From positions 181,186 to 245,185 of the forward strand of contig JACPCR010000064.1 of assembly GCA_016179685.1 (NCBI GenBank): DNA of 64,000 nucleotides. The letters are read 5' to 3'. The DNA is from Planctomycetota bacterium (GTDB taxonomy: Bacteria; Planctomycetota; PUPC01; JACPCR01). Numbering within the stretch: the stretch's first letter is position 1; every line of letters starts with the position of its first letter. The notes below the pieces were generated by a model. It worked only from the letters and a program-made list of their open reading frames with translations. It did not search any database and had not been told where the DNA came from. The translations under genes were made by a program, and so were the position numbers. Shown here one piece after another: positions 1-64,000 of the stretch.

Positions 1-27
1 GCTGAATTCGAAGGAGGACTCATTCAA

Positions 28-9378: not shown

Positions 9379-9405
9379 GGCCTGTTGATCCAGATAGGAA
9401 CCCGT

Positions 9406-44681: not shown

Positions 44682-44687
44682 CGGTGG

Positions 44688-45013: not shown

Positions 45014-45255
45014 TTCGACCTACCCAGGCGCAGAAGGGTGGCTTTGGAGAATTCAAGGACTTGTAACGCCTGCTCTCGAGTCACGGAAGGGAAGTTCTCC
45101 AGAAATTCTTCCAGGGTCAGGCCCGCCTCGAGGTTGTCAATGAGGGCTTGCACCGGGACCCGCGTCCCCCGGAAAACGGGCGCTCCGCTGACGATTTCGG
45201 GATCGATGGTTATCGGCAACTGCTCAAGCTCTGCCTCTTCAATGACCAGTGACAT
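45010..45255 (-). CDS. DUF433 family protein (antitoxin-like partner of DUF5615)
   Basis: ORF 45010..45297; start at ATG 45255 with GAAGGAGG upstream; GAPVFRGTRVPVQALIDNLEAG matches DUF433 pattern from memory. Confidence 0.6.
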   Translation of the reverse strand: MSLVIEEAELEQLPITIDPEIVSGAPVFRGTRVPVQALIDNLEAGLTLEEFLENFPSVTREQALQVLEFSKATLLRLGRSN

Positions 45256-45318
45256 CGTGGGCCTCCTTCGTGAGGGTCGGGAATCGACGAGAGCCATTTT
45301 ACTCCAGATTGCCTTCCC

Positions 45319-48300
45319 CTACACGTCCTTCACGTCGAACATCAGCCGCTGGAATTCCTCCTCAATTAGCCGGACTTTCCAGGTCATGTCCTCACGGCGC
45401 AGGTTTTCCAGGTGGTTGTCGCCGTTCACGTAAATCAGGTCGAACTCCTGGTCCCGGGTGTTGTACTTCTGCTTCCGGAAAAACTCGTCCAGGTCCTCGT
45501 TCGACTTCCCTGCCTTCCCGTCGGGAGCAGACAGGTCCTTCAAGCTCCGCCAGATGACCAAAACCTTCTCGCCCTGGGGATTCGTGCCTTGGACGACCCG
45601 GAAGCCCCGGATAACGTCCACGTGCATTACCCGGAGGCCCAGCAGGTAGTTGAAGGTCTCGACCAGGTCCACGGTTGTGGGCCGAGTCTCGCCCGCGCTG
45701 CCGGTGGCGATGTTGAGCTTGTAGAAGAAGGGGTCTTCGAACGCGGCGATGTTCAGCAGCGACGCGCTGCCGCGGCTCTCCACGTCCAGCATATAGGAGA
45801 GGAGGTAGTCCTCCCGGACTCCGTCGTTGGCTTCCAGGAGGGCGGCCTGCAAGTCGGTGCGTTTCAGTTCCAGGTTGTTGAGGGTGTCTTCGTAGGATTT
45901 CAGCCGGAGGTATTTGAAGAGGTGGCTGGAGCCTTCGCGGCTAACCGGCTTGCCGTCTTTCCAGTCCTTGGAGTAGATGACCTTCTGGATGCGTGGCTTG
46001 AGGACGGTATTGAAGTATTCGGCCATCTCGACGAGGATATACTTGCGGCCCCCCCCGGGTCTCGCGCGTCATCGCGATTCAGGTTGATGACGGCATGGCC
46101 CGTGGTGCCGGAACCGGCGAAGAAGTCCAAGACCAAGGAGTCCTCCGCGTCCGAGCAAATAAGCACGCAATCCTTGACAGCGTGTAGGGATTTGGGGAAG
46201 TCGAATGGACTCAGCGGACCAAACATTTCCTTCAATTCTTTCGTTCCATTGTCCCGAGCAGAATAGGCCGGGCTATCCCACCACGTGCGAGGCAGCGACC
46301 CTTCTTCGCGTAAGTACTTCCGTTTGTAAACCTCGTACTTGCCATCTCGCTTCATCACCTTCATTAGACAGACCTCTGCGATCGCCCTTTGAACGCCGAA
46401 GTTCCAGACCTTTTCAACGCCTGAATCGTCAATGGGCCAAATAGCGACTTCGCCGGGACGGGTTTTCTCGTTGATCCTCCAACTTTTACTGGTTTCTAGC
46501 CATTCCATCCCGGGGATCCGCTGTGCGTGATGCGCCTCGTCGAAGTAGATCGGAAAGAATTGCTTCGGTCGGTCTGGTCTGTCCGATCCCCTGCTGCTCT
46601 TCCTGAAGTTCTCCCATTCGAACGGTTTTCCCTCCTCATCTACTTGGTCGTACCTTTGTCGCTGAGAGTCACTGTGAGGCAACCGACCAACTTCGGAAGA
46701 CTGTGCAAGTTTCGAGTAGAACAGCGCGTACTCGTGGTTAATGGCGAACCCCTTCGTCGTAGCGCGACCGGACGGGTTGTTGCGAATCACAACGGTCGCC
46801 ATGTAGTTCTCATCAAAGAAAACACGATCTAACACAGACCTCAGGCGGTGGGATTCGTAGTCATCTATCGTCACGCACAGCAGCCCGTCGCAAGACAGGA
46901 CTTCACGTGAGAGTGCAACTCTATCTTCGACGAGGGAAATCCAAGTCGAGTGCTTGTACTCGTTCTTATACAGAATCTCGCTCTCTATCGCGTTATAAGG
47001 TGGATCGATGTAGATACACTTAATCTGTTCCCTATAGCGTGTTTCTATTAGGTTGAGCGCCTGGAAGTTCTCCCCGTGCACCAGCAGCCCGTCGGTATTC
47101 TCGTCCAGGTCCTGGATGCTGGCCAGCAGGCGGTCTTTGAACTCCGGGTCGAAGAAACGGGTGTCCAACACCAGGAAGGGATTAGCCTTCAGGAACTCCA
47201 CAGTGAGCGGCTTGGAATATTTCGGGGTGTGCAGGTCGCCCTGGATTTCGTCAATGGCGAAGAGGCGGACCCATTCCTCCCGCTGGGCGTCGCTGGCCGC
47301 GATTTCTACGTATAGCTCCCCAGGGACGCGGTCGAGCGTGATGCAGTAGTTCGTCTCGACCACGAACTTCTTCTTGAGCCAGAGCTTCTTCTGGAAGTTC
47401 TCCAGTTGCTCCAGGAAGGCGATGATCTTGTGGGCGATGCGGCGGAGCGCACGGATTTTGCCGAGATACTGCTCCACGCGGGGCGCGGACTCGCTTTCGA
47501 TGTCGTCCAGGTGCATGACCTCGTTCTTGATGTAGAAGTCCAGCTCCCGGCGGAGGAAGCCGCCCAGGTCCTTGTGGATGAAGTAGTCGAAGGTGTTGCG
47601 GGCGGTGTAGTCCGTGAGGTGCTTTTCGAGAAGGGTGCGGTCGGGATTCTTTTCGGTGGGGGCGGGGGTGGAGAGTTCCTCAATCCATTCTTTCGCATTG
47701 GCGGCTTGTAGTGCCCTCTTTAGAGGGTTGCCTTCGTCTGCACTACCCGCATCGAAGAGACCCGCTGTCCCAGCGGGATCCCTATGGGAAAGCGGCACTA
47801 CGAACCCGGAAGCGATGGCGGCGTTGTGATCCGACTGTTTCCGTTTCTGCGGGTCCGGCTGGTAGAGGAAGTGGATGAATAGCTCGTCAGGCTTTATGTC
47901 CACGGGATTCGATTCGCAGAGCATGAACCGGCGCTCCTTGTCGGGCCCGGCTTTCTGGTTGTCCTTCTCGGTGTCGGCTTCGACGAGCTTGAAGTGGACG
48001 CGGCGGCCGGAGGGGAGCTTGAAGGTGTAGTCCCGGAAGTATTCGGACGACTTGACGTAATACTGGTCGTGATTGGCCCAGTGGAGCTTGACCTCCTCGC
48101 CTTCGTAGGGGATGGCATAGACGCCTTCCTTGTAGCGGCGGAGGGAAAGGAAGTCGCCCTCGTGGTAGTAGCGGCGGAAGAAGTTGGTGAGGTCGGAGAA
48201 GATTTCCTGTTCGAGGGCGGCGGGGTCGCCGGCGGACTGGTATTTGGCCTTGAGTTCCTTGACCTTCGGGCTGGTTTCCGGGTCGATGCCAAGTCCTTTG

Positions 48301-48527
48301 GCCTGTTCGATGGCTTCCTTGAGTTGGGACTCGATGACGCGCTGGTCGCCGGACTGGTGTTCGCTTAGGGCATTGCGGACTTGCGGGAGGAGGTCTTTGT
48401 CGAGGAAGCGGGTAATCTCGTCCCGCTTCTGGTTCATGATGCGGTAGATGCCGAAATCGAGGTCGGCCTGGTCGAGCTGGAAGAGCTCGGCGAGCAACCG
48501 CCTCAACTTCTCGAGGTTTTGAGACAT
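45319..48527 (-). CDS. beta-class (N6_N4_Mtase-type) DNA methyltransferase, type III Mod-like, with ~500-aa N-terminal extension; reading frame interrupted at a C8/G8 tract
   Basis: ORF 45900..48527 contains motif IV IYIDPPYN and, ~300 aa later, motif I LDFFAGSGTTGHA (order IV then I = beta class); C-terminus continues in ORF 45319..46026 if the G8 run at 46049-46056 is read as G9 (...NLNRDDARDPGGGRKYILVEMAEYF...). Confidence 0.7.
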
Positions 48528-48546
48528 TGCGACAAACCCTCTGCGT

Positions 48547-49650
48547 CTATTCGTTGTGCTCGAGGAGCACGAATTTCCGTTTCAGGCCGTTCAAACAGTC
48601 GTGGCGGAGATGCCCCTCGTGCTGAAGCCGCCCGACGACGATACCGGGAGCGATACCGAGTTGACGGGCGAAGGCCGAAATGTCCTTCTCGCTTCGGTAC
48701 TTGCCCGTGGTTACCAGCTCGTCGTACTTGGCTTGCGGGATCAGCATCTTCACCGCGAAACGGTCCGCCTCCGTTTCCTCCATGCTCTTCGGCTTCTCCT
48801 TGTCGTCGACGAAGGCGGCCCTCTTGCCGTGCAAGAGTATGTGGCCTGCCTCGTGGAAGAAGCTGAACCAGAAATGGTCGTCGCTCTTATGCCGAAGGCT
48901 GAGCATCAGGAGGGCCTTGTCCTTGCTCAGCCAGCGTGTCGCGCCGCTGAGGTGCGTGCCCGGCAACTCCGCTACGAAGACGACGGCTACGCCGGCGTCG
49001 CAACAGAGGGCCTTCATCTTCGGCTCGAAGATGGCAGGCTCCGCGTTGGTGACCGACTGAATCTCCCGTAGCGCCGCGAGGAACCGTTCTTTGTCGTAGC
49101 GCGAGCAGACAACTTCCCGCGCCCACAGCTCCCCGATCCGTAGCCACGCCGTCAGGGACTCGGGAGCGCTCTTGAATGCAGGGGAATGCCTATAGGCTAC
49201 GTTGAGACCGGCGTAGGCTTCTTGCCAGGCCTCCACGCTTCCCACACCGAAGAAAGCAAGAAGGGAGGCAACGAGCTCGGCTGGGTCATCGGTTTTGGGA
49301 ATCAACCGGCGTTCAGCAAGCTCCTTGATGGGGAACTTCCTTGCCCACGCTTCCTGGCCCTCAAGCGCGGACCGGTCGGCAGCCTTGGCCGCGTGGAGCC
49401 GGAACAGACCATCCAGGTTGTTCCAGACCGCAGCGGACACGCCAAGGACCCTCTCCAGTTGGATGGCAGTCTCCGACGTGACGTTAGCCTTTCCAGTGAT
49501 GATTTGGCTAACCGTCTTCTCGCTCAGACCGCACCGTTGGGCCAGGTCCGTCCCCTTCATGCCCTTCGCTTCCAGGGTCTCCTTCAAGATCTCTCCCGGG
49601 TGAACGGCGTAGTCGGGATGGAATTCGTTCCTATCCGTGCTAAGTGTCAT
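48547..49650 (-). CDS. HigA-like HTH (XRE family) antitoxin domain fused to ImmA/IrrE-family metallopeptidase domain
   Basis: 367-aa ORF; N-terminal HPGEILKE...LSEKTVSQIITGKANVT HTH; C-terminal FFHEAGHILLH HExxH zinc-peptidase motif (COG2856-like). Confidence 0.7.
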   Translation of the reverse strand: MTLSTDRNEFHPDYAVHPGEILKETLEAKGMKGTDLAQRCGLSEKTVSQIITGKANVTSETAIQLERVLGVSAAVWNNLDGLFRLHAAKAADRSALEGQEAWARKFPIKELAERRLIPKTDDPAELVASLLAFFGVGSVEAWQEAYAGLNVAYRHSPAFKSAPESLTAWLRIGELWAREVVCSRYDKERFLAALREIQSVTNAEPAIFEPKMKALCCDAGVAVVFVAELPGTHLSGATRWLSKDKALLMLSLRHKSDDHFWFSFFHEAGHILLHGKRAAFVDDKEKPKSMEETEADRFAVKMLIPQAKYDELVTTGKYRSEKDISAFARQLGIAPGIVVGRLQHEGHLRHDCLNGLKRKFVLLEHNE

Positions 49651-51684: not shown

Positions 51685-52350
51685 GTGGTCCCCATTTGGA
51701 ATCGCTGGGTGCTTCAAGTGGAGATTCATCCGGCGGCTGGCCGCACCTGTCCCGCCGCGCTTCGCTCCACTCTGCGTTCCGCCCCGAATGTCATCGCGCT
51801 CGGAGCGATACGGGACCCGGAATCTCTGGCCCTTTGCCTGGAAGCTTCTCTCATGGGCCATCTGGTCCTGGCGGTTCTGCAAGTCGAAGACGCAGCGGCG
51901 GCGCTCCAGCGCATGGTTGAAATGTCGGGCGACCCACTCGTGGTGGCTGATGCAACGAAGCTGGTGGTCTCGCAGAGATTGGTGCGGAAGCTATGCACCC
52001 GATATTCCCGGGAAGAGCCGCCCGGGGATGAGCTTCTCGAGTGGGCCAGGAGCGCGGCGGAGAGCGGAGGCCTGGATTGGGCAACAGCCTCGAAACGCTT
52101 CCGCTCTGCCACGGGGTGTCCTGAGTGCATGAATACGGGATACCGTGGCCGGAACGTCATCGCCGAGGCGCTGGAGGTCACGCCCGGTATCCGGGCCGCG
52201 CTCCGTGAGAGAGCGGCGACCGGTCGTCTTCGGGCCGTGGCCATCGAACAGGGTATGATCTCCTTCAGCGCCCATGGGATTCTGAAAGCGTCGCCAGGCT
52301 TCACCACCTTGGGCGAGATCGCCCGTCACTCGGGCAGCTCATTCGTTTGA
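51685..52350 (+). pseudogene. C-terminal fragment of GspE/PilB-type secretion ATPase
   Basis: 221-aa ORF lacks Walker A/B but retains C-terminal features (PNVIALGAIRD, GHLVLAVLQVED degenerate His box, GCPECMNTGYRGR zinc-knuckle region). Confidence 0.45.
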
Positions 52351-52620: not shown

Positions 52621-54993
52621 ATGGTCCTTCAGATCGATAGCTTGCCCGTCGCCGAGCCCGGACACCTGACGTTCCGGCCCATTCCGGTCTTCCAGAATTC
52701 CTTGTCGCTCGAGCAGGCGCTCGAACGGAATCTGCTGACGCCGGCCCGCGCCCTCGAGCTGCTCGAGCAGATGCGGACTGTCCGGGCATTCGAGGAGATG
52801 ATTCTGACGTTGCGTGCGGGCGCGTACGAGCCCCTGAAGGGCTACGAGTACCGGGGTCCGACGCATCTTTCGATCGGGCAGGAGGCGACATCGGTGGGGG
52901 GCTGCGCGGCCATCGGGCCGGAGGACTACATCACCAGCACGCACCGGGGCCACGGCGACGGCATCGCCAAGGGCTTCAGCGCCATCACGGCCATGCCGGA
53001 CGAGGGTCTGCGGGCGCGGCTCGGGCTGGGGAATGCGAGTGCGGCGACTCGGCCGGAGCTGCTGGATCGGGCGCTCGAGGATCATCTCTTCCGGACGATA
53101 GCGGAGCTGTTCGGCAAGGAGGCGGGCTACTGTCGGGGCCGGGGCGGCGGCATGCACATCGCCGATTTCAGCGTGAACCATCTCGGCGCGAACGCCATCG
53201 TCGGCGGCAGCACCGGCATCGCCGCGGGGGCGGGCATCAGCAGCCGATACCGCCGGTCCGGCCAGGTGGCCCTCGCCTTCGTGGGCGATGGGGCCTATAG
53301 CAACGGCATCACGCTCGAGTCGATGAACCTCGCCAGCATGGCCCAGTTCTCGAATCCGAAGCTGACGGACCATCCCTTCGGAGTCCCCACGGTCTTCCTA
53401 ATCATCAACAACCAATATGCCATGACCGGGCAGCAGCAGGGCGAGATCAGCGGGGTGGACTACCTGGCCCGCCGAGCCGCGGGATTCGATCTCGACGGGC
53501 TGCACGCCGAGGTGATCAATGGGATGGATGTCCTGGCCGTGTTCGACAGCATTCGCCGGGCGGCCCAGCTTTGCCGAGAGGGTCATGGTCCCGTCGTCCG
53601 CGAGCTGGTGACTTACCGCTACTACGGCCATTCGCTGAGCGACCAGGGCTCGGAATATCGCCGGAAGGAAGAGGAGAAGGCATGGAAGGAGATCGATCCG
53701 ATTCCGGCCCTGGAGAAGCAGATTCTGCGGCTGGGCCTGGCGACGGAGGAAGGGTTGGCGGCGTTGCGTGCCCGCGTGCAGGCGCGGCAGGACCGCGCGG
53801 CGGTCCGCGCGGCGGAAGCGCCGGAGCCGGACGTGCGTGAGTTGACGCGCTACGTCTTCACGGAACGGCGTGAGGCGCACGTGCCCGAGCCGTTCCGCCA
53901 GGTGAAGACGCTGTCGCCCGCCGTGCGCTCCAAGCGCGACAAGGACGGCCAGATCACCTTCAAGGAGGCGGTCCGGGAGGCGCTCATGGAGGAGATGCTC
54001 CGGGACCGCCGAGTCCTCTTCTACGGCGAAGACGTCGCCGATTACGGCGGCGCATTCAAGGTCACCAAGGGCCTCCTCGAGATATTCGGCCGGGACCGCG
54101 TCTTCAATACCTCCATCTCCGAGGCCGGGATCGTGGGGACCGGCGTCGGCTGCGCCATGACGGGGCTGCGGCCCGTCGTCGAGCTCATGTATTCCGACTT
54201 CGAGTTCCAGGCGAGTGACCAAATCCACAACCAGGCCGCCAAGTGGAGCTACATGTCCGGCGGGCAGACCTCCGTTCCGCTGGTGATCCGGACCTCGCAG
54301 GGCGCGGGCAAGGGCTACGGGGGCCAGCACTCCCAGGCGCTCGAATCGCATTCCACCCATACGCCGGGCCTGAAGGTCGTCGTTCCCTCCACACCCTACG
54401 ACGCCAAGGGACTGCTCAAGACGGCCATCCGAGACGGCAACCCGGTCCTCTACGTCGAGAACCAGAGCCTCTACAACCTGAAGGGGCAGGTGCCGGAGGA
54501 GGAATACCTTGTCCCGTTCGGCGAAGCCCGCGTTCTGCGCCGCGGCCAGCACGCGACGATCGTGGCCTGGTCGCTCCTCGTGCACGAGGCCATCAAGGCC
54601 GCGGACGAGTTGGCCCGGGAATTCGAGATCAAGGTGGAGGTGATCGATCCGCGGACGCTTTGCCCGCTCGACCTCGACACCATCGTCGAATCCGTGCGAA
54701 AGACCGGGCGACTCCTGGTGGTTTCCCAGGCCTGCCGGACGGGCAGCTTTACGGGCGAGATCGCCGCCCGCGTCCAGGAAGCGGCATTCGATGACCTGGA
54801 TGCCCCGATCGCGCGCCTCGGCTCGGCTGACGGGATATCGCCCCAATCTCACGTTCTCGAAAAGGCCTACCTGCCGAACGCGACGTCCATCGTCGCCGCG
54901 GTCCGGGCGCTGACTCAAGGCCTCTCGGTGGGACAGGCACGGTCCGGCGAGCGCACAGAGCGGCTACAGGTTCACCGCTCGGCTGACACTTGA
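52621..54993 (+). CDS. thiamine-diphosphate-dependent 2-oxoacid dehydrogenase E1 component, fused alpha and beta subunits
   Basis: 790-aa ORF; N-terminal half has E1-alpha TPP-binding region (GDGAYSNG ... YRYYGHS); C-terminal half has E1-beta features (transketolase-like pyrimidine-binding and C-terminal domains). Confidence 0.8.
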   Translation: MVLQIDSLPVAEPGHLTFRPIPVFQNSLSLEQALERNLLTPARALELLEQMRTVRAFEEMILTLRAGAYEPLKGYEYRGPTHLSIGQEATSVGGCAAIGPEDYITSTHRGHGDGIAKGFSAITAMPDEGLRARLGLGNASAATRPELLDRALEDHLFRTIAELFGKEAGYCRGRGGGMHIADFSVNHLGANAIVGGSTGIAAGAGISSRYRRSGQVALAFVGDGAYSNGITLESMNLASMAQFSNPKLTDHPFGVPTVFLIINNQYAMTGQQQGEISGVDYLARRAAGFDLDGLHAEVINGMDVLAVFDSIRRAAQLCREGHGPVVRELVTYRYYGHSLSDQGSEYRRKEEEKAWKEIDPIPALEKQILRLGLATEEGLAALRARVQARQDRAAVRAAEAPEPDVRELTRYVFTERREAHVPEPFRQVKTLSPAVRSKRDKDGQITFKEAVREALMEEMLRDRRVLFYGEDVADYGGAFKVTKGLLEIFGRDRVFNTSISEAGIVGTGVGCAMTGLRPVVELMYSDFEFQASDQIHNQAAKWSYMSGGQTSVPLVIRTSQGAGKGYGGQHSQALESHSTHTPGLKVVVPSTPYDAKGLLKTAIRDGNPVLYVENQSLYNLKGQVPEEEYLVPFGEARVLRRGQHATIVAWSLLVHEAIKAADELAREFEIKVEVIDPRTLCPLDLDTIVESVRKTGRLLVVSQACRTGSFTGEIAARVQEAAFDDLDAPIARLGSADGISPQSHVLEKAYLPNATSIVAAVRALTQGLSVGQARSGERTERLQVHRSADT

Positions 54994-55206
54994 CGCGCCG
55001 TCTCTCCTTGGACGTCGCTTCTCCCGTAGGGACCTGCGGAGGACATGAGGGGGTGCGGTGGCCTCCAGCCCCGGCATCCCCGGCACCTCCCATTTCCGTC
55101 GCTGACCGGGGCGGCGCGACAAGACAGGAAAAATCCACAAAGCGAAGAAATTTCGCCGTAAGAATTTGGTGAAAAGAATGATGATTTGAGCCCTGTAGGG
55201 GCGCAA

Positions 55207-55258
55207 TAATGGTTTCGCTAGTAGACGAGTTCGCAAGTGCAGGTGCATTTGCGAACTC
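55207..55258. repeat. REP-like palindrome, core CAAGTGC-AGGT-GCATTTG
   Basis: gcTAGTAGACGAGTTCGCAAGTGC aggt GCATTTGCGAACTCGTCTACTCgg immediately upstream of DUF58 gene. Confidence 0.8.
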
Positions 55259-55267
55259 GTCTACTCG

Positions 55268-56251
55268 GTGCTCACCGCGTTGCTTCTTCCTGTGCCTACC
55301 GTTCCGAAAGAAATCCTCAAACGCGTCCGCCAGATTCAAATCCGGACGTCCCACCTCGTCAACGATGCCCTCGCTGGCGAATACGTCAGCGTCTTCCGAG
55401 GCCAGGGCATGGAGTTCCAGGAGGTCCGGGAATATCAGCCCGGGGACGAAATCCGAACCATCGATTGGAACGTCACGGCCCGCACGGGCAGGCCGTTCGT
55501 CAAGCGCTTCCGTGAGGAACGGGAGCTGACGGTCATGCTGTTGGTGGACGCCAGCTCTTCGGGCCAATTTGGCAGCCAGGGCCGGACGAAGAGCGACCTG
55601 TCCGCGGAGGTCTGCGCGGTCCTCGCCTTCAGCGCCATCAAGAACAACGATAAGGTCGGCCTCCTGATCTTCACGGACCGTGTCGAGAAATTTGTTCCGC
55701 CCAAGAAGGGCAAGCAGCACGTGCTGCGAGTCATCCGAGAGCTTCTCGCTTTTCAGCCGGAGAGCCCCCGGACGGATATTCGGCTGGCCCTCCAGTACCT
55801 GTCCCAAGTGACCACCCGACGCTGTGTGACCTTCCTCGTTTCGGATTTCATTTCCGAGGGGTACGAGAAGGCGCTGCGCATCGCCAATCGCCGGCACGAC
55901 ATCATCGCGGTCCGCGTCATCGATCCACGGGAGATGGGATTGCCCGAGCCGGAGCAGCCGCCCGCTCCCCTCCGTCTCCTGGGGCCGGCAGGCCGATGGA
56001 TTTGGGGTCTCTTCCAGCCTCCGGCCATCTTCGAGCTGGAGGACGCGGAAACGGGAGAGACCCTGCTCGTCGATACTCGGGACCCCAACACCCTGCGCGG
56101 CTTCGGCCTGCTGAGCCAGAATCAGGTCCAGCAGAGCGGGGAGTATTTCCGCTCCATCGGTGTGGATTCGATCGAAATCCGAACGGATCGGCCCTACACG
56201 GATATCCTGTTGCGCTTCTTCCGAATGCGAGAACGCCGCATGAGGGCCTGA
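55268..56251 (+). CDS. DUF58 domain protein (vWA-like; MoxR-associated family)
   Basis: 327-aa ORF starting at GTG; N-terminal LKRVRQIQIRTSHLVNDALAGEYVSVFRGQGMEF is the canonical DUF58 start region. Confidence 0.75.
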   Translation: MLTALLLPVPTVPKEILKRVRQIQIRTSHLVNDALAGEYVSVFRGQGMEFQEVREYQPGDEIRTIDWNVTARTGRPFVKRFREERELTVMLLVDASSSGQFGSQGRTKSDLSAEVCAVLAFSAIKNNDKVGLLIFTDRVEKFVPPKKGKQHVLRVIRELLAFQPESPRTDIRLALQYLSQVTTRRCVTFLVSDFISEGYEKALRIANRRHDIIAVRVIDPREMGLPEPEQPPAPLRLLGPAGRWIWGLFQPPAIFELEDAETGETLLVDTRDPNTLRGFGLLSQNQVQQSGEYFRSIGVDSIEIRTDRPYTDILLRFFRMRERRMRA

Positions 56252-56252
56252 C

Positions 56253-57644
56253 ATGGAGAAATTTCAGTACCCTGACCTGCCGCCGAGGAATCCGCCGAGG
56301 AAGCTGTTCGACCGGCGTTCCGCCTTCTTTACCGCCCTCGCCCTCCTGTTGTTTCTCGTCCTTTTCGGGATTCAGGTCTGGATGGCCCGGCGGTTGGCCC
56401 GAAGCCCGGCCCCCTTGCCGGGTCCCGCAGAGGCCCCTCCCGCAGCCAGTGGCAAGAGGTGGACCCCCGCCCTTCAGCGGCAATTCGCCCAGAAACTGGC
56501 CGCCGAGGGGCTTCGCAAAGAGGCCGCCGCCGCCTTCCGGCAATACCTCGAGCAGGCCGATGTTCCCAATGACGAAAGAGCCCGGGTGCTCTACACCCTG
56601 GCCGGCCTTCATTTCGAGGATGCCCAGTACGAGGCCGCACTCGCCGCTTTCTACCAGGCCGAGGTCGCCGGCCTCCCCGAGGACATCCGGCCTGAAGTCA
56701 ACCGCAAGGTCGTCGCCTGCCTCGAGCGCCTCGGCAAGTCCTTCTCCGCGCAGTCCGAGCTGGACCGGCGCACCGCGCTCACGCCCGGGCAGGTCCGAAG
56801 CCCCGCGGGCGACCTCGCCGTGGCCCGCATCGGCGACGAGACCGTCACCCTCGGACAGCTCCAGGATGAAATCCAGCGGCTGGAGCTGGCCCAGCCTCAG
56901 CTCGCCCAGGCCCTCCGGTCCGACCCCCGCCGCCTCGTCGAATTCCTGCGCCAGTACCTCTTCGAGAAGCTCCTGGCTCGCAAGGCCAGAAAGCTCGGCA
57001 TCGATCAGCAGCCGGACTTCCGAAAACAGATGAACGACCTGGTCGATCGCTCCCTCGCCCAGATTCTCATCCGCCAGGAAATCGAACAGAAGGTGAAGAT
57101 CGATCCCCGGGACGTCGAGCTGTACTACCAGGCCAACCGGGAGCGCTACGTGCAAAAAGGCCGGGCCAGCGTCGCCCACGTTCTTCTCGAAGACGAGGAG
57201 ACGGCCCGGAAAGTCCTTGCCCTGGCGCAGAAAGGCGGTGATTTCGCCCAGATCGCCCGGGATTACTCGAAGGACGAGGCCACCCGGTCCGAGGGCGGCC
57301 GCATCGCCCAGCCCCTCATCGAGGACTCGCCTGACGTGCCCGGGATCGGGCGCTCCGCCGAGTTCCTCAAGGCCGCGTTCTCCACGCCCGCAGGACAGGT
57401 CGGCCCCGAGATCGTCCGTTCACCCGCGGGCTTCCACGTCCTCAAGGTCCTCGAAGTCCAGCCTTCGCGCCCGATGCCGCTCGAGGAGGCCCAGCAGGCC
57501 GCCGCCCGCGACTACCAGGTCGAAAAGGCCCAGACGGTCATCCAGCGCTTGATCCAGGAGACCCTAGAAGTGGAACGCGTGCAGATATTCGAGGACAAAA
57601 TCCTCGGCCCCAAGAGCCCGCTTAAGGTGGAGGCGCCCGAATGA
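56253..57644 (+). CDS. membrane-anchored parvulin-type peptidyl-prolyl isomerase (SurA/PpiD-like) with helical N-terminal region
   Basis: 463-aa ORF; one N-terminal TM segment; C-terminal parvulin-like domain (ASVAHVLLEDEETARKV...GGDFAQIARDYSKD). Confidence 0.65.
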   Translation: MEKFQYPDLPPRNPPRKLFDRRSAFFTALALLLFLVLFGIQVWMARRLARSPAPLPGPAEAPPAASGKRWTPALQRQFAQKLAAEGLRKEAAAAFRQYLEQADVPNDERARVLYTLAGLHFEDAQYEAALAAFYQAEVAGLPEDIRPEVNRKVVACLERLGKSFSAQSELDRRTALTPGQVRSPAGDLAVARIGDETVTLGQLQDEIQRLELAQPQLAQALRSDPRRLVEFLRQYLFEKLLARKARKLGIDQQPDFRKQMNDLVDRSLAQILIRQEIEQKVKIDPRDVELYYQANRERYVQKGRASVAHVLLEDEETARKVLALAQKGGDFAQIARDYSKDEATRSEGGRIAQPLIEDSPDVPGIGRSAEFLKAAFSTPAGQVGPEIVRSPAGFHVLKVLEVQPSRPMPLEEAQQAAARDYQVEKAQTVIQRLIQETLEVERVQIFEDKILGPKSPLKVEAPE

Positions 57645-57940
57645 AAAGCCGCTCTCTTGGCGCTTTCCTGCAGCATTTCGGGACTTAAAGAATTGAGGCG
57701 CATGCTTTACGGTTTCCCCACAAGGTGGACGGTTTGCGCGCCCGGCCACGCGTGAATAAAATATTCCATAAAACGGGTTCAGAAGGTCCGCCCCAAGAAG
57801 AAAACTGTAGTCCCCGTCCCGGAAATTTGCTATCCGGAATCGGATGGAAAACCCATGGCCGAGACGGACCTCCATCGAAAGATCATGATCGACCTGCTAC
57901 ACGCGCTCCTTTGAATTAATTCTTTTTAAATCGGCAACTT

Positions 57941-59233
57941 ATGCATGCGCGTGTTTCCGTATTTCGCCCGCATTGCCTCATGTACCCGCGTGCGGAAGTA
58001 GGATTCCACTTCCCGGCGCAGGTACTCGTCTGCCTCGCCCTGGCCGCGCTGGCATGGGCCGAGGGCCCCGCGCCCGGCCTCCCTCCGGATGCGTTCTCTC
58101 CCGCACCCCCGGCAACCACGTCCCCGGAGTCACCCGGTGACGCCCCTGTCGAGGCCCCGACGGCCTCCCCGCCGCCTCATGCGCCCGGGAACGAGTGGGC
58201 GGACGAGGCTTCGCCAGCGCCCGGGAGCGAGGCTGCGAACGAGCCTGAACCAGCGCCACCAGGAACGCCACTGCGTCTGCCGGCCGGAAACGCCGTCCGG
58301 CACGACGACATTCAAATCACCGCCTCGGTCGATAATTCGCGGCCCAGCATCGGCGATTGGGTCACCTATCGCCTTCGGGCCGAGGGGCCCGAAGGCATCG
58401 AGCTGCGCCGCGCCGAAATCCCCGAAAAGATGCCGGACTACCTGGCCCTGAAGGGCCGTCTCGCTTCGGAAAGCCGGACCGAGAACGGCCGCGTCTCCCG
58501 GACCTGGGAGTTCCTCCTCGATTTCTACTTCTCCGGGCAGTTCCCCCTTCCGCCCATCGTGGTCACCTACCGCGGGCTGGATGGGACCGAAAAACAGGTC
58601 ATTGCGCCCCTGTTCCTGCTCGACATCCAGGGCCTGCAACTCGATCCCGATCACCCCGCCGATATCCGTCCCAACAAGCCCATGAGAGACATCCCCACGA
58701 GCCGTCGCCGGGCATGGATCATCACCGGGTCCGTCCTCTCAGCCCTCGCCCTCGCCTCATTAGGCCTCTTCTTCTTGCTCCGCTGGTGGTGTCGTCCGGA
58801 GGACACGCCTCCGCTCCCCGCCCATCTCCTCGCCTACGAGCAGATGCGGCGGCTTGTCGAAGACCGCCTCGTGGAACAGGGGCGCATCGAGGAATACTAT
58901 GTGCGTCTCTCCGATATCTGCCGTCACTACCTCGAGAACCGCTTCGACCTCCGAGCACCCGAGTGCACCACGGAGGAGTTCCTTGCCGAGATGGCCCAGA
59001 CTCGCCTGCTGACGGACCACCAGAAGCAGCGGGTGAGGGATTTTCTCGGGCATTGCGACTTGGTCAAGTTCGCTCGTTACGGCCCCACGGTGGAGGAGAT
59101 GCAGCAGGCTTTTGATGCGGCCAAGCGCCTCGTGGACGAGACGCGGGAGCGCACCCCGGACGAAATGGAAGCGGGCGCGCCCGAAGGAGAAAACGTCGAG
59201 CCGGCGCAGGCTGTGGGTCCCAAAGTGGAGTGA
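57941..59233 (+). CDS. DUF4381-like membrane protein (Bat-operon associated)
   Basis: 430-aa ORF; alternative start ATG ~57980; signal-like segment, Pro/Ala-rich linker, single TM (WIITGSVLSALALASLGLFFLL), C-terminal ...CDLVKFARYGPT motif. Confidence 0.5.
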   Translation: MHARVSVFRPHCLMYPRAEVGFHFPAQVLVCLALAALAWAEGPAPGLPPDAFSPAPPATTSPESPGDAPVEAPTASPPPHAPGNEWADEASPAPGSEAANEPEPAPPGTPLRLPAGNAVRHDDIQITASVDNSRPSIGDWVTYRLRAEGPEGIELRRAEIPEKMPDYLALKGRLASESRTENGRVSRTWEFLLDFYFSGQFPLPPIVVTYRGLDGTEKQVIAPLFLLDIQGLQLDPDHPADIRPNKPMRDIPTSRRRAWIITGSVLSALALASLGLFFLLRWWCRPEDTPPLPAHLLAYEQMRRLVEDRLVEQGRIEEYYVRLSDICRHYLENRFDLRAPECTTEEFLAEMAQTRLLTDHQKQRVRDFLGHCDLVKFARYGPTVEEMQQAFDAAKRLVDETRERTPDEMEAGAPEGENVEPAQAVGPKVE

Positions 59234-59241
59234 CCGGTGTC

Positions 59242-60348
59242 ATGTTCGCCGGACTCTTTCGTGACGTACTCGCTTTCTTCCTCCTGTTGCCCGTGGCTGG
59301 CCTGGCCGCGCTGACCCTCTACCGGGACCGAAGCGGAGGCACGCTCCGTTTCTCGTCCCTCAAGAACCTCCTGCGACTCCGGCCCTCCTGGACGCTGCGC
59401 GCCCGCGCCGCCCTGCATTTTCTGCGCCTCTTGGCCCTTGTCCTGATCGTCCTCGCTCTCGCCAGGCCACAGAAGGGCAAGGAGGAGACCCGGGTGACCA
59501 CCGAAGGCATCGATATCGAGCTGGTCGTCGACTGTTCCCTGAGCATGCGGGCCCTCGACCTCGACCCCCGAATGGCCGACATCGAGGCTACGGTGGAAGC
59601 CATCCGGTCAAGAAAACTCGACCTGACGAGCCTCAAGGACCGCCTCGAAGTCGTCAAGGAGGTGGTTGAGGAATTCGTCAAGGGCCGCGAAGGCGACCGG
59701 ATCGGCCTGACCGTTTTTGCGGATACGGCCCAGCTTCAGTGTCCGCTGACGACGAACCACGGCATTCTGCTGGACTTCGTGCGCCGGCTGCGCCTGCCTT
59801 CCTGGCGCGAGATGGTTCAGGCGGAGGAGCGCGGCGAGCCGATCTGGGGCAATCAGACCGCCATCGGCCTGGGCCTCGCCTCCGGCGTCCGGCGGCTCGA
59901 GAAGTCCGGGGCCAAGTCCCGGGTCCTCATTCTGCTGACCGACGGCAGCAACAACGTTTGGGAGCTGACGCCGGAGACCGCGGTGGAGATGGCCGCGGCC
60001 CTGGGCATCCGAATCTATGCCATCGGCGCGGGGACCGACGACCAGGCCTACGCACTCGTCGAGCAGTGGGACGGATCGCCCGCCCTCCGGGCCATTCCCG
60101 GCGCGGCGATCGATGAGAAATTTCTCCAGAAAGCCGCGGAGAGCACCGGCGGCCGCTATTTTCGCGCCCGCGATGAGCAATCCCTTCGGGAGATTTACCG
60201 GGAGATCGACCAGCTTGAAAAGGTCAGGACCGAAGGGGCCAAGTACACGGAGTACCGGGAACTGTTTCCGTACCTGCTGCTGCCCGCGGCCGGGCTCCTG
60301 CTTTTCGAGATCGGACTCGGCCGCACTCGTCTGAGGAAACTCCCTTGA
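59242..60348 (+). CDS. BatA-like vWA-domain membrane protein
   Basis: ORF 59230..60348; ATG 59242; two N-terminal TM helices then vWA MIDAS-like region (DCSLSM ... LTDGSNN), C-terminal TM. Confidence 0.7.
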   Translation: MFAGLFRDVLAFFLLLPVAGLAALTLYRDRSGGTLRFSSLKNLLRLRPSWTLRARAALHFLRLLALVLIVLALARPQKGKEETRVTTEGIDIELVVDCSLSMRALDLDPRMADIEATVEAIRSRKLDLTSLKDRLEVVKEVVEEFVKGREGDRIGLTVFADTAQLQCPLTTNHGILLDFVRRLRLPSWREMVQAEERGEPIWGNQTAIGLGLASGVRRLEKSGAKSRVLILLTDGSNNVWELTPETAVEMAAALGIRIYAIGAGTDDQAYALVEQWDGSPALRAIPGAAIDEKFLQKAAESTGGRYFRARDEQSLREIYREIDQLEKVRTEGAKYTEYRELFPYLLLPAAGLLLFEIGLGRTRLRKLP

Positions 60349-61373
60349 ATTTCGCTGCGCCGCATTACCTCTATGCCACCGCGCTGTTCGTGCCCGCGTT
60401 CATCCTTTTCAACGCCTGGGCGCAGGCCCAGGCGCGGCGCGCCCTCCAGCGCTTCGTCGGGACCGAGTTGCTCGATCGCTTGACTCAGTCCGTCAGCCCG
60501 GCCCGGCAAAAAGTCAAGGCCGCTCTCCTCCTTCTCGGCCTCGTCCTTCTGGGCATCAGCCTCGCCCGGCCCCGGTGGGGCGCAACCACCGAAACCCTCC
60601 GCCGAAAAGGCGTGGAAATCCTTCTGGCCGTCGATGTCTCCAAGTCCATGCTCGCCCGGGACCTCGCACCCAGCCGCATCGAAAGGGCGCGTCGCGAGCT
60701 CCAGGACCTCCTCCGCCTCCTCGAAGGACACCGCGTCGGCCTCATCGCTTTCGCCGGCGAGGCCTTTGTGCACTGCCCGCCGACCACCGACCTGGACGCC
60801 TGCTCCCTGTTCATCGACAGCATGGACGTCGGCCTCATCGGCCGCGGCGGCACGCACATCGGCGACGCCATCCGCCAGGCAAATCGTGTCTTCGCTCAAA
60901 GCCCCGCTTCCCATAAGGCGCTCATCCTGATCACCGACGGCGAAGACCACGATACGGAGCCCGTCGCCGCCGCCCAGGACACTCTGAAAGTCGGTGGAAA
61001 AATTTATGCCATCGGCATGGGAACGCCCGAAGGGTCTTTCATTCCGGTACTCGATGAGAGGGGCAACACATCCTACCTGAAGGACCGGCAGGGCCAGTAC
61101 GTGCAGGCCCGCCTCGATGAGACCACGCTGCAAAAAATCGCCCTGGAAACGGGCGGGGCATATCATCGCGCCACGGGAGCGGGACTTGAGCTGCAAGAAA
61201 TCCTGAAAAAAATAGAATCCCTGGAAAAGTCGGAGCTGGAGTCCCAGAAGCTTCAACGTTTCCAGGAACGTTACCAGCTCTTCCTGCTGGCTGGCTTCGC
61301 CCTGCTGATGGTCGAGGCCGGACTGACCGACCGCCGGCGCCGGGCCTCCATCGGCGCAGTCCCCATGACATGA
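60345..61373 (+). CDS. BatB-like vWA-domain membrane protein
   Basis: TTG start overlapping previous stop; N-terminal TM helices; vWA motifs (DVSKSM ... ITDGEDH); C-terminal TM. Confidence 0.7.
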   Translation: MNFAAPHYLYATALFVPAFILFNAWAQAQARRALQRFVGTELLDRLTQSVSPARQKVKAALLLLGLVLLGISLARPRWGATTETLRRKGVEILLAVDVSKSMLARDLAPSRIERARRELQDLLRLLEGHRVGLIAFAGEAFVHCPPTTDLDACSLFIDSMDVGLIGRGGTHIGDAIRQANRVFAQSPASHKALILITDGEDHDTEPVAAAQDTLKVGGKIYAIGMGTPEGSFIPVLDERGNTSYLKDRQGQYVQARLDETTLQKIALETGGAYHRATGAGLELQEILKKIESLEKSELESQKLQRFQERYQLFLLAGFALLMVEAGLTDRRRRASIGAVPMT

Positions 61374-62269
61374 AATCCAGAAAGCAAGTCCCCATCCTGC
61401 TCCTCGCCTTCGCTGCCTCCGCCTCCGCAGAGTCGGTCGCCGGACGCGTCCGCGAAGCCAACCAGCGGTATCGCCAGAACGACCTTGAAGGAGCCATGAA
61501 CCTGTATCAGGACGCGCGGACCGACGCGCCCGAGTCCCCTGAGTTGGCTTACAACATCGGGAATGTCTATTTTCAGGAGAAAAAGCTCGATGAGGCCATT
61601 CGCTCCTTTCAGGAGGCAGCGCAGAAGGGCGATGCGGCCCTGAAGGCCGACGCCCTTTTCAATCTGGGAAACTGCACCTACCGCCGGGCCCAGCAGAAGG
61701 AATCGGCCGAGAAGCTCGATGAAGCCCTGCAGGACGCCCGGACGGCCCTCGATCTCTACAAGGAGGCGCGCCAGACGCGTAAGGCCCTGATGCGGGATGG
61801 CGCTTCGGAGGACCCGGACCTGGATCACAACATCGAGTTCACCCAGCGGGAAATCCGGCGCATCCTGGATAAGATGCTTCAGCGGGCGAAACAGAACGAA
61901 AAGAGCAACCAGGACTCCAGCTCGCAGGGAGAGAAACAGCAGCAACAGCAGGAGCAACGGGCCGGGGATGAAAAGGCCAGGCCTGACCCGTCGCGTTCAC
62001 AAGACGAGGAGAAAAAGCAGGAGGGGAAAGCGCCGGAACAGGAGCAGGAGGAAGCCGCGGCGCAGCCAAAGCCCGCCGGAGGAAAGAAGGAAGACCCGGA
62101 GGGAAAGGAGGACAAGGAAAGCGACGGGAAGGATGCCCGCGCTCAACGCCTGACGCCGGAACAGGCCCGGGCCTTGCTGGACCGGCTTTCCGACAAGGAA
62201 AAGGAAGAGCTGAAAAAGAGGAAGATGCAGGCCAGGGGCGGAGGGCATTACACCGACCGCGACTGGTAA
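61370..62269 (+). CDS. BatC-like TPR-repeat protein with charged low-complexity tail
   Basis: ATG overlaps previous stop (ATGA); signal-like N-terminus, TPR-like units, then Q/E/K-rich tail. Confidence 0.65.
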   Translation: MKSRKQVPILLLAFAASASAESVAGRVREANQRYRQNDLEGAMNLYQDARTDAPESPELAYNIGNVYFQEKKLDEAIRSFQEAAQKGDAALKADALFNLGNCTYRRAQQKESAEKLDEALQDARTALDLYKEARQTRKALMRDGASEDPDLDHNIEFTQREIRRILDKMLQRAKQNEKSNQDSSSQGEKQQQQQEQRAGDEKARPDPSRSQDEEKKQEGKAPEQEQEEAAAQPKPAGGKKEDPEGKEDKESDGKDARAQRLTPEQARALLDRLSDKEKEELKKRKMQARGGGHYTDRDW

Positions 62270-62469
62270 CTCCTTGATGGAGACGCCGCCTGCAAGGGTC
62301 AAGACCGTAACAGATGAGACCCGCCTTGGATTCTCGTGCCTTATTGTTCTCGTTGCCCTCGTCCTCGTCGTCGAAATGTCCGCTCGGGCTTCGAGAACGA
62401 ACACGAGCACGGATGAACGGGGATACGAGCGTCAACGCTCCGGTGTTCAGACACATCATCGTTACAACC

Positions 62470-64000
62470 ATGGGTCCGTGGATATCGACCATCTCTCAGC
62501 CGTTTCTCCTGACGGGCCCCCTCCTTTGCCTTCTCCTGGCGCTCCTCGGCGTCCAGCTTGACGCCCGCGGGGAAGTCTCCGTGTCCGCGGAAATCCATCC
62601 GCCCCGCGTTTCCCTGGGCGAGGCCGCGGTCCTCGAGGTCCAGATCACCGGGTCGACCAAAGCCTCCCCTCCGGCCTTCCCTGAGATCGCCGGTCTCGGC
62701 TTCTCCCGATGCAGCCAGTCCACTCAGACCTTCGTCGTCAATGGCCGAGTCTCCCAAAACATCGCCTTCTCCTGCCAGGTCATGCCCGAAAGGGCCGGTA
62801 ACTATACCCTCCAGGGCATCACCCTCGAAATCGATCGTCAGGTCCATGCCGTCCCGCCCGTCTCCCTCGAGGTCGCACCGGCCAGCCGCACGAACGACGT
62901 CCTCGCTATCGTCGGCCTGAGCAAGCCCGAGATCGTCGTCGGCGAGCCTGTCCTGCTCACGGTCGACTGGCTCTTGCGCAAGGATATCCAAGGCTACGAA
63001 ATCCGCATCCCCTGGTTTCCTCCCAGAGATTTCACCGTGATGGATCCGATCCATCGCCGATCCCAGCAGGGACAGAGTCTCCCCAACGAGGACGACGAGG
63101 TGGTCGTCATCAATCCTCAGACCGCTGGCCAGAAGGTCTTTTTTCAGCGGGGTCAGGCACAGCACGACGACCGCGAATACACCCGCTTCCGCCTCCAGCG
63201 CCTTCTCACCACGCTCAAGCCGGGTTCCTATCGATTCGAACCGACGCAGATTCTTTGCCGGATTGTCACGGGCGCGAAGTCCTCCAAACGCCGAAACTTC
63301 TTCGGCGACGAGGACCCCTTCGAGGCCTTTGGCTTCGGTAACCGATCCCGTGTGGAACTGAAGTCCCTGCTCATCACGGCCGACCCCGTTGTGCTCGACG
63401 TGAAGCCGCTGCCCGAAGAGGGCCGCCCCGAGGGTTTTTCCGGCAGCGTGGGCTCGTTCGAGCTCGAAGTCTCGGCTTCGCCGCGGAAGGTCAAAGTGGG
63501 CGATCCGGTCACCCTCACGTTGACCGTCAGGGGGAGAGGCAGCTTTGAGACCGTAACTTGTCCGGGACTTGAAAGTGTCTTGGGATTCCGGGAATACGAA
63601 GCGGAAAGCAAGGTCTCTTGTGAGGCCGATGGGGCGGCCTTCCGGGGTGAGAAAACGTTTTCGAAGCCTCTCGTCCCGACGGAAGAATCGGTTCGGGAAA
63701 TTCCTCGCGTTCGCTTCTCCTACTTCGATCCGGAGCGCCGGGAATACCAGACGGTCGTCCGCGGTCCCTTTCCCATCGAGGTCGCCCCGTCGCTGAGCGA
63801 CGGGACCGTGGGGTTGGTCACTGCGCCGGAGCCCGGACAAAAAAAGATGGACGTCCGGCCAGCGGCCGGCGTTTTCCCCTTGCGGAAGCCTTCGCTGACG
63901 CAGTTTCGTGACCGCTCCCTGCCCTGGTATCTCCGGCCCGGGTTGTGGCTGCTCCTTCCCTTGCCCGCCTTCCTCTGCCTCGCCTGCGCCCTTTTCGAGC
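62470..64000 (+). CDS. BatD-like protein (oxygen-tolerance family), 3' end beyond window
   Basis: not in ORF track (no stop before window end); hand translation from ATG 62470 gives signal-like start MGPWISTISQPFLLTGPLLCLLLALLG and stays open to 64000; BatD-like blocks (FSGSVGSFELEVSASPRKVKVGDPVTL) and late TM segment. Confidence 0.6.
   Translation, partial: MGPWISTISQPFLLTGPLLCLLLALLGVQLDARGEVSVSAEIHPPRVSLGEAAVLEVQITGSTKASPPAFPEIAGLGFSRCSQSTQTFVVNGRVSQNIAFSCQVMPERAGNYTLQGITLEIDRQVHAVPPVSLEVAPASRTNDVLAIVGLSKPEIVVGEPVLLTVDWLLRKDIQGYEIRIPWFPPRDFTVMDPIHRRSQQGQSLPNEDDEVVVINPQTAGQKVFFQRGQAQHDDREYTRFRLQRLLTTLKPGSYRFEPTQILCRIVTGAKSSKRRNFFGDEDPFEAFGFGNRSRVELKSLLITADPVVLDVKPLPEEGRPEGFSGSVGSFELEVSASPRKVKVGDPVTLTLTVRGRGSFETVTCPGLESVLGFREYEAESKVSCEADGAAFRGEKTFSKPLVPTEESVREIPRVRFSYFDPERREYQTVVRGPFPIEVAPSLSDGTVGLVTAPEPGQKKMDVRPAAGVFPLRKPSLTQFRDRSLPWYLRPGLWLLLPLPAFLCLACALFE

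Follow-up and report, generated by a model that had tools for sequence, protein, structure and literature searches.

A MoxR-DUF58-Bat gene cluster probably split by lineage-specific rearrangement, with a predicted parvulin chaperone as a conserved member

The 64-kb stretch of DNA analysed here (the window), part of a 315,079-bp contig of a Planctomycetes metagenome-assembled genome (MAG), ends in a Bat-like, aerotolerance-type operon without moxR, the gene that normally heads Bat operons (PMC11834572). Gene calls from an open reading frame (ORF) listing and Pfam, with NCBIfam for extra families and scans for transmembrane (TM) segments and motifs, reveal seven genes from DUF58 to BatD that, like the E1 dehydrogenase gene upstream of them, lie on the + strand and are tightly packed. 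They encode a DUF58 protein, a parvulin-type peptidyl-prolyl isomerase (PPIase), a DUF4381-related protein (P4) and BatA-, BatB-, BatC- and BatD-like proteins, the content and shared direction proposed in a first-pass annotation made from the sequence. All seven ORFs are full length, and DxSxS motifs are found in the DUF58, BatA-like and BatB-like proteins. Exact look-up assigns MBI2192393 to E1, MBI2192394 to DUF58, MBI2192395 to the PPIase and MBI2192398 to the BatB-like protein; the window's first complete gene is MBI2192348.

The DUF58 gene (55292..56251, +) encodes 319 amino acids (aa) from a GTG at 55292, or 327 aa if the GTG at 55268 is the start, and MBI2192394.1 was a 100% match to its product in a homology search of NCBI proteins. 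The protein matches Pfam DUF58 (PF01882, 262 bits) and VWA_2 (58 bits), shows no TM segment in the TM scan and retains an intact MIDAS-type DASSS motif. It is presumed to be the cytoplasmic VWA-like partner of MoxR. Two membrane VWA proteins are encoded after P4. The BatA-like protein (59242..60348, +; 368 aa, with another start at GTG 59230) has two N-terminal TMs, a VWA domain with a DCSLS MIDAS motif and a C-terminal TM, and it matches Pfam VWA, VWA_2 and the BatA N-terminal domain (30.5 bits; cut-off 25.9). The BatB-like protein (60345..61373, +; 342 aa from a TTG start) carries a DVSKS MIDAS motif and matches VWA_2 and VWA, with the BatA domain at just 18.5 bits, under its cut-off. The product of the BatC-like gene (61370..62269, +), a secreted TPR protein of 299 aa, starts with a signal-peptide-like segment, ends in a Lys/Glu-rich tail and matches TPR_2 (39 bits) and further TPR models in Pfam. 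In NCBIfam the Leptospira models rank first for all three, namely VWA_BatA_Lepto (149.8 bits), VWA_BatB_Lepto (157.3 bits) and TPR_BatC_Lepto (51.8 bits against a cut-off of 175), each under its curated cut-off, as expected for a distant phylum. The Bat assignments proposed in the first-pass annotation are thus backed by Pfam matches for DUF58, VWA, TPR and BatD and by sub-threshold but top-ranking NCBIfam models.

The window end cuts the BatD gene (62413..64000, +; stop at coordinate 64371). Logan contig L081, whose sequence agrees with the window at every one of 12,631 nt, gives its full-length product as 652 aa. BatD matches its Pfam family (PF13584, 76.3 bits) in two stretches and comprises a signal or anchor segment, repeated BatD immunoglobulin (Ig)-type domains, a TM at about residues 507-530 and a helical tail related to that of P4. 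The three Logan contigs with BatD (L081-L083) all end 29 bp past its stop, near coordinate 64400, in sequence that is not a repetitive extragenic palindromic (REP) element, which suggests a repeat or a strain-variable point just past the window. In relatives, a TPR gene of 280-284 aa follows BatD, in the position of BatE.

Most junctions within the series are close. BatB and BatC share an ATGA overlap and BatA and BatB a TTGA overlap. At P4/BatA, one choice of start codon gives a GTGA overlap and the other a gap of 8 nt. Of the two overlap types reported earlier, ATGA is present at BatB/BatC, whereas the supposed TGATG at DUF58/PPIase reads TGAcATG, a 1-nt spacer. The PPIase and P4 genes lie about 300-335 nt apart.

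The absence of moxR ahead of DUF58, pointed out in the first-pass annotation, is real. No MoxR-type Walker A motif occurs across the window, and tblastn with seven MoxR proteins against it gives a best E of 0.09. That annotation held that MoxR is either encoded elsewhere or dispensed with in a variant of the system. The former proved correct, and the latter is contradicted by an intact ortholog 61 kb upstream on the same contig and strand. This protein, MBI2192342.1 (331 aa), is the best NCBI match to the MoxR proteins of relatives, is filed on a contig of the same 315,079-bp length and precedes DUF58 by 52 accession numbers. It is 78% identical to the MoxR of the related contig L084, whose DUF58 counterpart is 77% identical to that of the window, and in its C-terminal half it shares 85% identity with the MoxR adjoining the closest DUF58 relative. 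Walker A (GVPGLAKT) and Walker B (ILADEINR) motifs are intact, and Pfam reports AAA_3, bpMoxR, AAA_lid_2 and AAA_5. Judged by this matching divergence, the intact motifs and the closeness to the MoxR adjoining the closest DUF58 relative, MBI2192342.1 is the cognate moxR ortholog.

The position of the gene is given by Logan contig L090, which matches window positions 1-10825 base for base and opens with the last 174 codons of MBI2192342.1 on the + strand. The moxR stop lies at coordinate -5869, 5.9 kb upstream of window base 1, and 61,160 nt with 51 protein genes separate it from the DUF58 start. A moxR just outside the window in the same operon, which the earlier annotation had allowed for, is therefore half right: the gene is outside the window, but with 51 genes in between it is not in the same operon. 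Directly ahead of moxR is the ortholog of u308, a BatD-like gene (MBI2192341, HYU36_10185), and Logan contig L094 carries, as in relatives, ABC transporter genes, DUF4340, HtrA, u308 and the MoxR N-terminus in this order. On its other side, moxR is followed by a convergent ddl-like gene (MBI2192343). The HtrA/DegP-like protease gene and u308, the latter with a weak DUF4129-like tail, directly precede moxR both in L094 (8556-10927) and in L084 (6394-8729, with a 4-nt overlap), so the conserved unit is larger than the classical operon.

Gene order in relatives shows how unusual this arrangement is. A homology search yielded a clade of eight DUF58 proteins at 75-79% identity to that of the window, and moxR lies upstream of DUF58 in all six closest-clade contigs (L084, L085, L099, L100/L101, L102 and L103). 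A wider comparison took in the 80 nearest DUF58 loci from one-genome-per-species contigs (at most 61% identical, many phyla). In every one of these with readable upstream sequence, a Walker-A protein of about 329 aa, MoxR by tblastn, ends just before DUF58. Given such uniform linkage, the lack of moxR in the window is a real and unusual absence. In L100/L101 a 159-aa 23S_rRNA_IVP gene stands between moxR and DUF58, indicating that this spacer tolerates insertions. Genes of this family, 159-165 aa in size, occupy L100 3828-4307 and L101 1129-1608, and another lies between P4 and BatA at L084 13601-14098. In the closest relative (L099, 5257-7164), BatB and BatC are fused into one VWA-TPR protein of 635 aa; a fusion of the BatB-BatC type has been reported for Leptospira biflexa (PMC3557215).

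Close relatives share the order HtrA, u308 (293-308 aa), MoxR, DUF58, parvulin protein, P4, BatA, BatB, BatC, BatD and TPR. The synteny comparison called for by the first-pass annotation thus shows the parvulin slot and the DUF58-to-BatD order to be kept, whereas moxR linkage is lost in the window only. Synteny with L084 and L085 begins at residue 1 of DUF58, coordinate 55292, and window orthologs have similar lengths and 52-77% identity. Both outer flanks match the closest relatives, with HtrA, BatD-like and MoxR on one side and DUF58 to BatD on the other. Because moxR lies upstream of DUF58 in all six close relatives, these gene orders identify the separation as a lineage-specific chromosomal rearrangement. 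A simple inversion is ruled out, since moxR and DUF58 are on the same strand and the outer flanks keep their orientation. A mobile island is likewise ruled out by the housekeeping and metabolic genes of the 61-kb interval and by the lack of any integrase or transposase among the ORFs scanned in it; a scan for island boundaries found no tRNA genes or Rfam matches in the window. The interval encodes, among others, ffh, dapB, hemE, the ddl-like gene, HSP20, PPK2, aminotransferases, an aldehyde dehydrogenase, Ldh_2, SDR and an MraY-like transferase, and is ordinary chromosome.

The parvulin gene between DUF58 and P4 (56253..57644, +; MBI2192395, 463 aa) encodes a predicted membrane-anchored periplasmic chaperone, based on Pfam and the TM scan. 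An N-terminal TM at about residues 21-49 is followed by a TPR-like region, a SurA_N-like scaffold and a parvulin domain. Three Pfam models, Rotamase_2/3/Rotamase (PF00639/PF13145/PF13616), score above cut-off at 63.9, 47.1 and 42.8 bits, and both conserved histidines are present (AHVLL, GFHVLKV), as predicted for a parvulin PPIase with its conserved His pair. The first-pass annotation was correct about its position between DUF58 and the DUF4381-like gene, but not in calling it inserted. Of 82 related loci, 51 have a homolog at this place, as does every close-relative contig that reaches past DUF58, which marks the gene as an old, widely conserved operon member.

In the alignment, the chaperone family shares a core that runs from an N-terminal anchor through about 100 residues of TPR-like sequence and a SurA_N-like scaffold to a C-terminal helix. 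The parvulin domain is present at 11 of the 51 loci with a homolog and lacking at the other 40. It occurs in the window clade, Auribacter, Poribacteria, Omnitrophota, Verrucomicrobiota and Hydrogenedentota, and is shortened in three. Forms of about 310 aa without a parvulin domain are found in Calditrichota, KSB1, Zixibacteria and Ignavibacteriales; these short forms have a lipobox-like Cys after a hydrophobic segment, suggesting that they are exported. SurA_N_3 matches were obtained for 12 of 24 homologs. Searched against PDB sequences, the family profile retrieves PEB4/Cbf2 (3rfw, E = 1.3e-29), HP0175 (2.7e-26) and SurA (about 5e-8), with further matches to PrsA and to TPR proteins such as LapB. 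Such matches point to a membrane-tethered chaperone of the SurA/PEB4 type, probably in the periplasm. No paper on a PPIase or SurA-like member of MoxR/Bat operons was found in the literature searched, though one may exist elsewhere.

P4 (57980..59233, +; 417 aa, or 430 aa from an alternative ATG at 57941) is a small, single-pass BatD-type protein with a signal peptide, a Pro-rich linker, one BatD/DUF11-like Ig-type domain, a TM at about residues 245-271 and a DUF4381-related helical tail. Its earlier description as DUF4381-like applies to the family but not to the window protein itself, which has no Pfam match even at E = 10, to DUF4381 (PF14316) or BatD included. In an alignment of 30 homologs, 15 match DUF4381 (best E = 7e-9) and 11 match the BatD domain, and window P4 aligns with the DUF4381-matching homologs through the conserved motif region. 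The family layout consists of a signal peptide, one Ig-type BatD domain, a TM, a basic run and a helical domain with the motif PAHE...IKEYY..LS.I.R.YIE.RF...APE.TTEEFL...CDLVKFAKY. In hhalign comparisons, the P4 family profile matches the C-terminal 280 aa of window BatD (93.8%, E = 1.7e-7) and u308 over its whole length (97.2%, E = 3.7e-11), which argues that three BatD-type paralogs are encoded (u308, P4 and BatD). A profile search of PDB sequences found no solved relative of P4. From these alignments, BatD-type paralog with a DUF4381-related tail is the more fitting description of P4, and by the positive-inside rule the tails of the BatD-type proteins are probably cytoplasmic. The spacer between the chaperone and P4 genes (57645..57979, about 300 nt) has no equivalent in relatives, where the two genes overlap by 4 nt. 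It contains a 52-codon ORF remnant without a Pfam match, whose end, ...CYPESDGKPMAETDLHRKIMIDLLHALL and a stop, recalls what we take to be the N-terminal motif of Uma2-family endonucleases, a lead only.

Upstream of DUF58, in the place usually taken by moxR, are the E1 gene and a REP-like palindrome, as first annotated. The E1 gene (52621..54993, +; MBI2192393, 790 aa) encodes a fused alpha/beta 2-oxoacid dehydrogenase with Pfam E1_dh, Transket_pyr and Transketolase_C and NCBIfam pyruvate dehydrogenase E1 alpha and beta matches. It ends the 61-kb interval and is found at this position in none of the relatives, so its adjacency to DUF58 looks coincidental and the gene appears to be a neighbour outside the Bat system. 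In Francisella, proteins of the MoxR operon are reported to interact with pyruvate and oxoglutarate dehydrogenases (PMC11834572). The intergenic region that follows (54994..55291) contains the right-hand synteny breakpoint, an AT-richer stretch and the REP-like hairpin. An attempt to place the breakpoint by aligning this DUF58 upstream spacer with the MoxR-DUF58 spacers of relatives failed because the sequences are not alignable.

The palindrome (55220..55265) has 22-nt arms, folds into a hairpin of -43.8 kcal/mol (z = -6.65) and ends 27 nt ahead of GTG 55292. Four copies occur in the window, where chance would give 0.38; the other three (~3549-3594, 20589-20634 and 22887-22932) also lie between called genes. 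The family is about 46 nt long with a consensus of about AGTAGACGAGYTSGCAAGTGCA..TGCAYTTGCSARCTCGTCTACT, and copies show compensatory paired changes in both arms (TTGGCAA/TTGCCAA, CTCGCAA/TTGCGAG). REP-like is a fair name for an element that is short, dispersed, intergenic and capable of a stable hairpin. It is not found in relatives L084, L085 and L001, and Logan contigs L087-L089 begin at the first copy. Any part that it played in the rearrangement, like a function as terminator or insulator downstream of E1, is conjectural.

Several other features of the window were noted. Near the right end of the 61-kb interval lies a restriction-modification or defence-like islet (42639-49650, - strand) with genes for a ResIII-type helicase (42639-44681), an 875-aa N6/N4 DNA methylase (45900-48527) and an HTH_3 plus Peptidase_M78 (ImmA/IrrE-like) protein (48547-49650). 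The GC fraction dips to about 0.58-0.60 around 48-50.5 kb, and the same end of the interval holds a 467-aa gene of no assigned family. Close by, a T2SSE ORF (51685-52350, +) matches just positions 187-370 of the 370-position Pfam profile, the C-terminal half, with no Walker A motif nearby, and is probably a truncated gene remnant. A 725-aa protein with caspase-like Peptidase_C14 and FGE-sulfatase domains is encoded at 34312-36489 (+). The taxonomic label of the source MAG is itself uncertain, as a PPIase and a partial DUF58 matching window 55292-57644 (MBI3178773/MBI3178774) occur on a 3.2-kb contig of a 'Deltaproteobacteria bacterium' MAG, and the nearest outside relatives of the window DUF58 are from Auribacterota and Omnitrophota.

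We consider it likely, with good confidence, that a complete MoxR(MRP)-DUF58-Bat system has been split by a lineage-specific rearrangement and that the window carries its membrane half. The ancestral order would have been HtrA, u308 (BatD-like), MoxR, DUF58, chaperone, P4, BatA, BatB, BatC and BatD, and 61,160 nt of ordinary chromosome would now lie exactly between moxR and DUF58, the two halves remaining on the same strand. Such a split would require MoxR to act in trans and transcription of the genes from DUF58 to BatD to start at a promoter within the 298-nt spacer that follows E1. In this model, a cytoplasmic MoxR hexamer would dock on the TM-less, VWA-like DUF58 protein, much as NorQ docks on NorD, a mode put forward as general among MoxR/VWA pairs (PMC9976466, as relayed in PMC11432383). 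Together, MoxR and DUF58 may remodel or assemble an inner-membrane complex. Its parts would include BatA and BatB, with MIDAS-bearing VWA domains predicted to face the periplasm. This orientation follows from their charge pattern under the positive-inside rule, with an Arg-rich loop between TM1 and TM2 and basic residues after TM3, and from the topology of Borrelia BB0173, whose VWA domain was shown experimentally to be periplasmic (PMC5700661). Other candidate parts are the secreted TPR protein BatC and the three single-pass proteins u308, P4 and BatD, with putative periplasmic Ig-like domains and cytoplasmic DUF4381-like tails. These BatD-type proteins could join the cytoplasmic MoxR-DUF58 pair to the periplasmic parts, which the membrane-tethered SurA/PEB4-like parvulin chaperone may hold or fold. 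By analogy with homologs, the physiological role may be envelope stress tolerance (oxidative, heat), as mutants of Bacteroides, Riemerella and Francisella show aerotolerance, oxidative-stress or heat phenotypes (PMC3557215, PMC11834572).

Some observations weigh against this account. Leptospira bat mutants show no oxidative-stress phenotype, and Bat function is unsettled (PMC3557215). The promoter scan found no match to the sigma-70 consensus upstream of DUF58, and protein contacts, topologies, promoter and function are all features that we infer. The order from moxR to DUF58 is read from consecutive protein accessions and Logan contigs. Logan assemblies from several samples break inside moxR at codons ~158-166 (the end of L094, the starts of L090 and L099), in a 29-nt stretch encoding the near-invariant ATQNPIEQEG. 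MoxR genes from co-occurring organisms probably caused a de Bruijn graph branch there. Joining the two moxR halves consequently depends on the NCBI assembly together with their equal divergence from relatives (77.7% and 77.6%) and matching GC content at third codon positions (GC3).

The same break is what an assembly or binning artefact would lead one to expect, with the 61-kb gap as a chimeric join in the MAG and moxR truly abutting DUF58: a conserved 29-nt stretch is a typical place for misjoins, and proteins identical to those of the window also appear under the 'Deltaproteobacteria bacterium' MAG. The junctions themselves argue otherwise. Independent Logan contigs contain E1-DUF58 with no mismatches over 12,631 nt and moxR(C-terminus)-ddl with no mismatches to the window over 10,825 nt, E1 precedes DUF58 whichever way the moxR halves are joined, and the halves share divergence and GC3. 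We regard an artefact as highly improbable. Decay of the Bat half after the rearrangement, with pseudogenisation under way, is also very unlikely, if slightly less so. The spacer of about 300 nt with a gene fragment between chaperone and P4, the divergent Pro-rich N-terminal extension of P4 and its sub-threshold Pfam scores, and the truncated T2SSE gene nearby would suit a remnant, but the seven ORFs are uninterrupted, have ortholog-like lengths and 52-77% identity, keep start/stop overlaps and have intact MIDAS motifs.

A true MoxR-independent variant, in which DUF58-Bat needs no ATPase and the remote moxR acts only for HtrA, u308 or other clients, is unlikely as well. Wherever upstream sequence is readable, in about 88 related loci (82 plus the six close-relative contigs), MoxR and DUF58 are linked, which speaks for a functionally tight pair; the displaced moxR is intact, its divergence matches that of DUF58, and DUF58 keeps its MIDAS motif. 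In favour of the variant are the distance of 61 kb, which makes co-transcription impossible, the unchanged Bat protein levels reported after moxR inactivation in Francisella (PMC3557215), and the Synechococcus MRP-type MoxR, a general chaperone without a linked VWA partner (PMC11432383). It is scarcely credible that the genes form a vWA-MoxR biological-conflict (anti-phage) system instead of an envelope chaperone system. MoxR-vWA modules are known in conflict systems (PMC7159879), and the restriction-modification-like islet lies 6-13 kb upstream; yet none of nine proteins matches PADLOC, the architecture is classical MRP/Bat (membrane VWA, TPR, BatD) with no effector domain, and synteny is kept across phyla as in a housekeeping cluster.

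The system is of the known MoxR(MRP)-DUF58-Bat kind, and the one defining feature it misses, a moxR gene at the head of the operon, is missing through the lineage-specific split. Operon structure in Planctomycetes is often called loose, and a split operon in a lineage carrying that label is unsurprising. What the window adds by itself is an example of a highly conserved operon broken by rearrangement without visible decay, and a warning to annotators that local context alone is insufficient to call a Bat cluster MoxR-less. Unlinked MRP-type moxR genes are already known from Synechococcus (PMC11432383). The modestly new points come from the comparison, not from the window: a conserved SurA/PEB4-like chaperone slot, an optional parvulin domain and a DUF4381 slot occupied by a BatD paralog. 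The chaperone gene thereby becomes a regular member of MoxR-DUF58-Bat clusters in many phyla.

Tentatively, and with slightly more doubt than conviction, we suggest that in many non-model phyla the MoxR-DUF58-Bat machine includes core subunits that the operons described for Bacteroides, Leptospira and Francisella lack: a membrane-tethered, periplasmic TPR-SurA/PEB4-like chaperone with or without parvulin, and several single-pass BatD-type proteins with cytoplasmic DUF4381-like tails. Such a machine would couple a cytoplasmic AAA+ chaperone to a periplasmic holdase. The phyla concerned are Calditrichota, KSB1, Zixibacteria, Ignavibacteriales, Hydrogenedentota, Poribacteria, Omnitrophota, Auribacterota, Verrucomicrobiota and the Planctomycetes-labelled clade of the window. 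If this is so, the split would reveal two separable expression units, an ATPase half (HtrA, BatD-like, MoxR) and a membrane half (DUF58 to BatD). For these genes, of unclear function since 1999, the comparison offers a concrete and testable model of a trans-envelope chaperone complex.

The closest known systems are the batI (aerotolerance) operon of Bacteroides fragilis and its MoxR-DUF58-BatA-E homologs in Riemerella, Francisella, Leptospira and Borrelia, which have the same parts: an MRP-type MoxR, DUF58, two BatA-domain membrane VWA proteins, a TPR protein and BatD. They also share the order after DUF58 and the tight coupling of the genes (PMC3557215, PMC11834572, PMC5700661). Unlike in those operons, moxR is 61 kb away here and does not head the operon, a TPR-SurA-like parvulin chaperone gene follows DUF58, the DUF4381 slot encodes a 417-aa BatD-type protein, and an extra BatD-like gene and HtrA precede moxR.

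For the chaperone, the nearest counterparts are PEB4/Cbf2 of C. jejuni (3rfw), HP0175 of H. pylori and SurA/PpiD/PrsA, with profile matches of E = 1e-29 to 1e-8 and a common plan of SurA_N-type scaffold and parvulin domain. Like PEB4/SurA chaperones, the window family is predicted to be extracytoplasmic and membrane tethered, through a TM in long forms and a lipobox Cys in short ones. As in SurA, where the parvulin domain is dispensable, this domain looks like an optional insert in the chaperone scaffold. The family differs by an added N-terminal TPR-like region and, unlike PEB4/SurA, which serve general outer-membrane protein biogenesis, is tied by gene context to the MoxR/Bat cluster.

The presumed ATPase-VWA pair resembles NorQ/NorD and RavA/ViaA, in which an AAA+ MoxR protein is likewise paired with a soluble VWA/MIDAS protein, here DUF58. 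For such pairs it has been proposed that the hexamer pore is plugged by the VWA domain (PMC9976466, as cited in PMC11432383). Those pairs belong to another MoxR subfamily with other clients, and the pairing proposed here follows from adjacency in relatives. SyMRP of Synechococcus sp. NKBG15041c is the nearest parallel to the displaced gene, as this MRP-subfamily moxR also lies far from any VWA gene (PMC11432383). No partner has been identified for SyMRP, whereas the partner set of the displaced moxR is clear by orthology with unsplit relatives.

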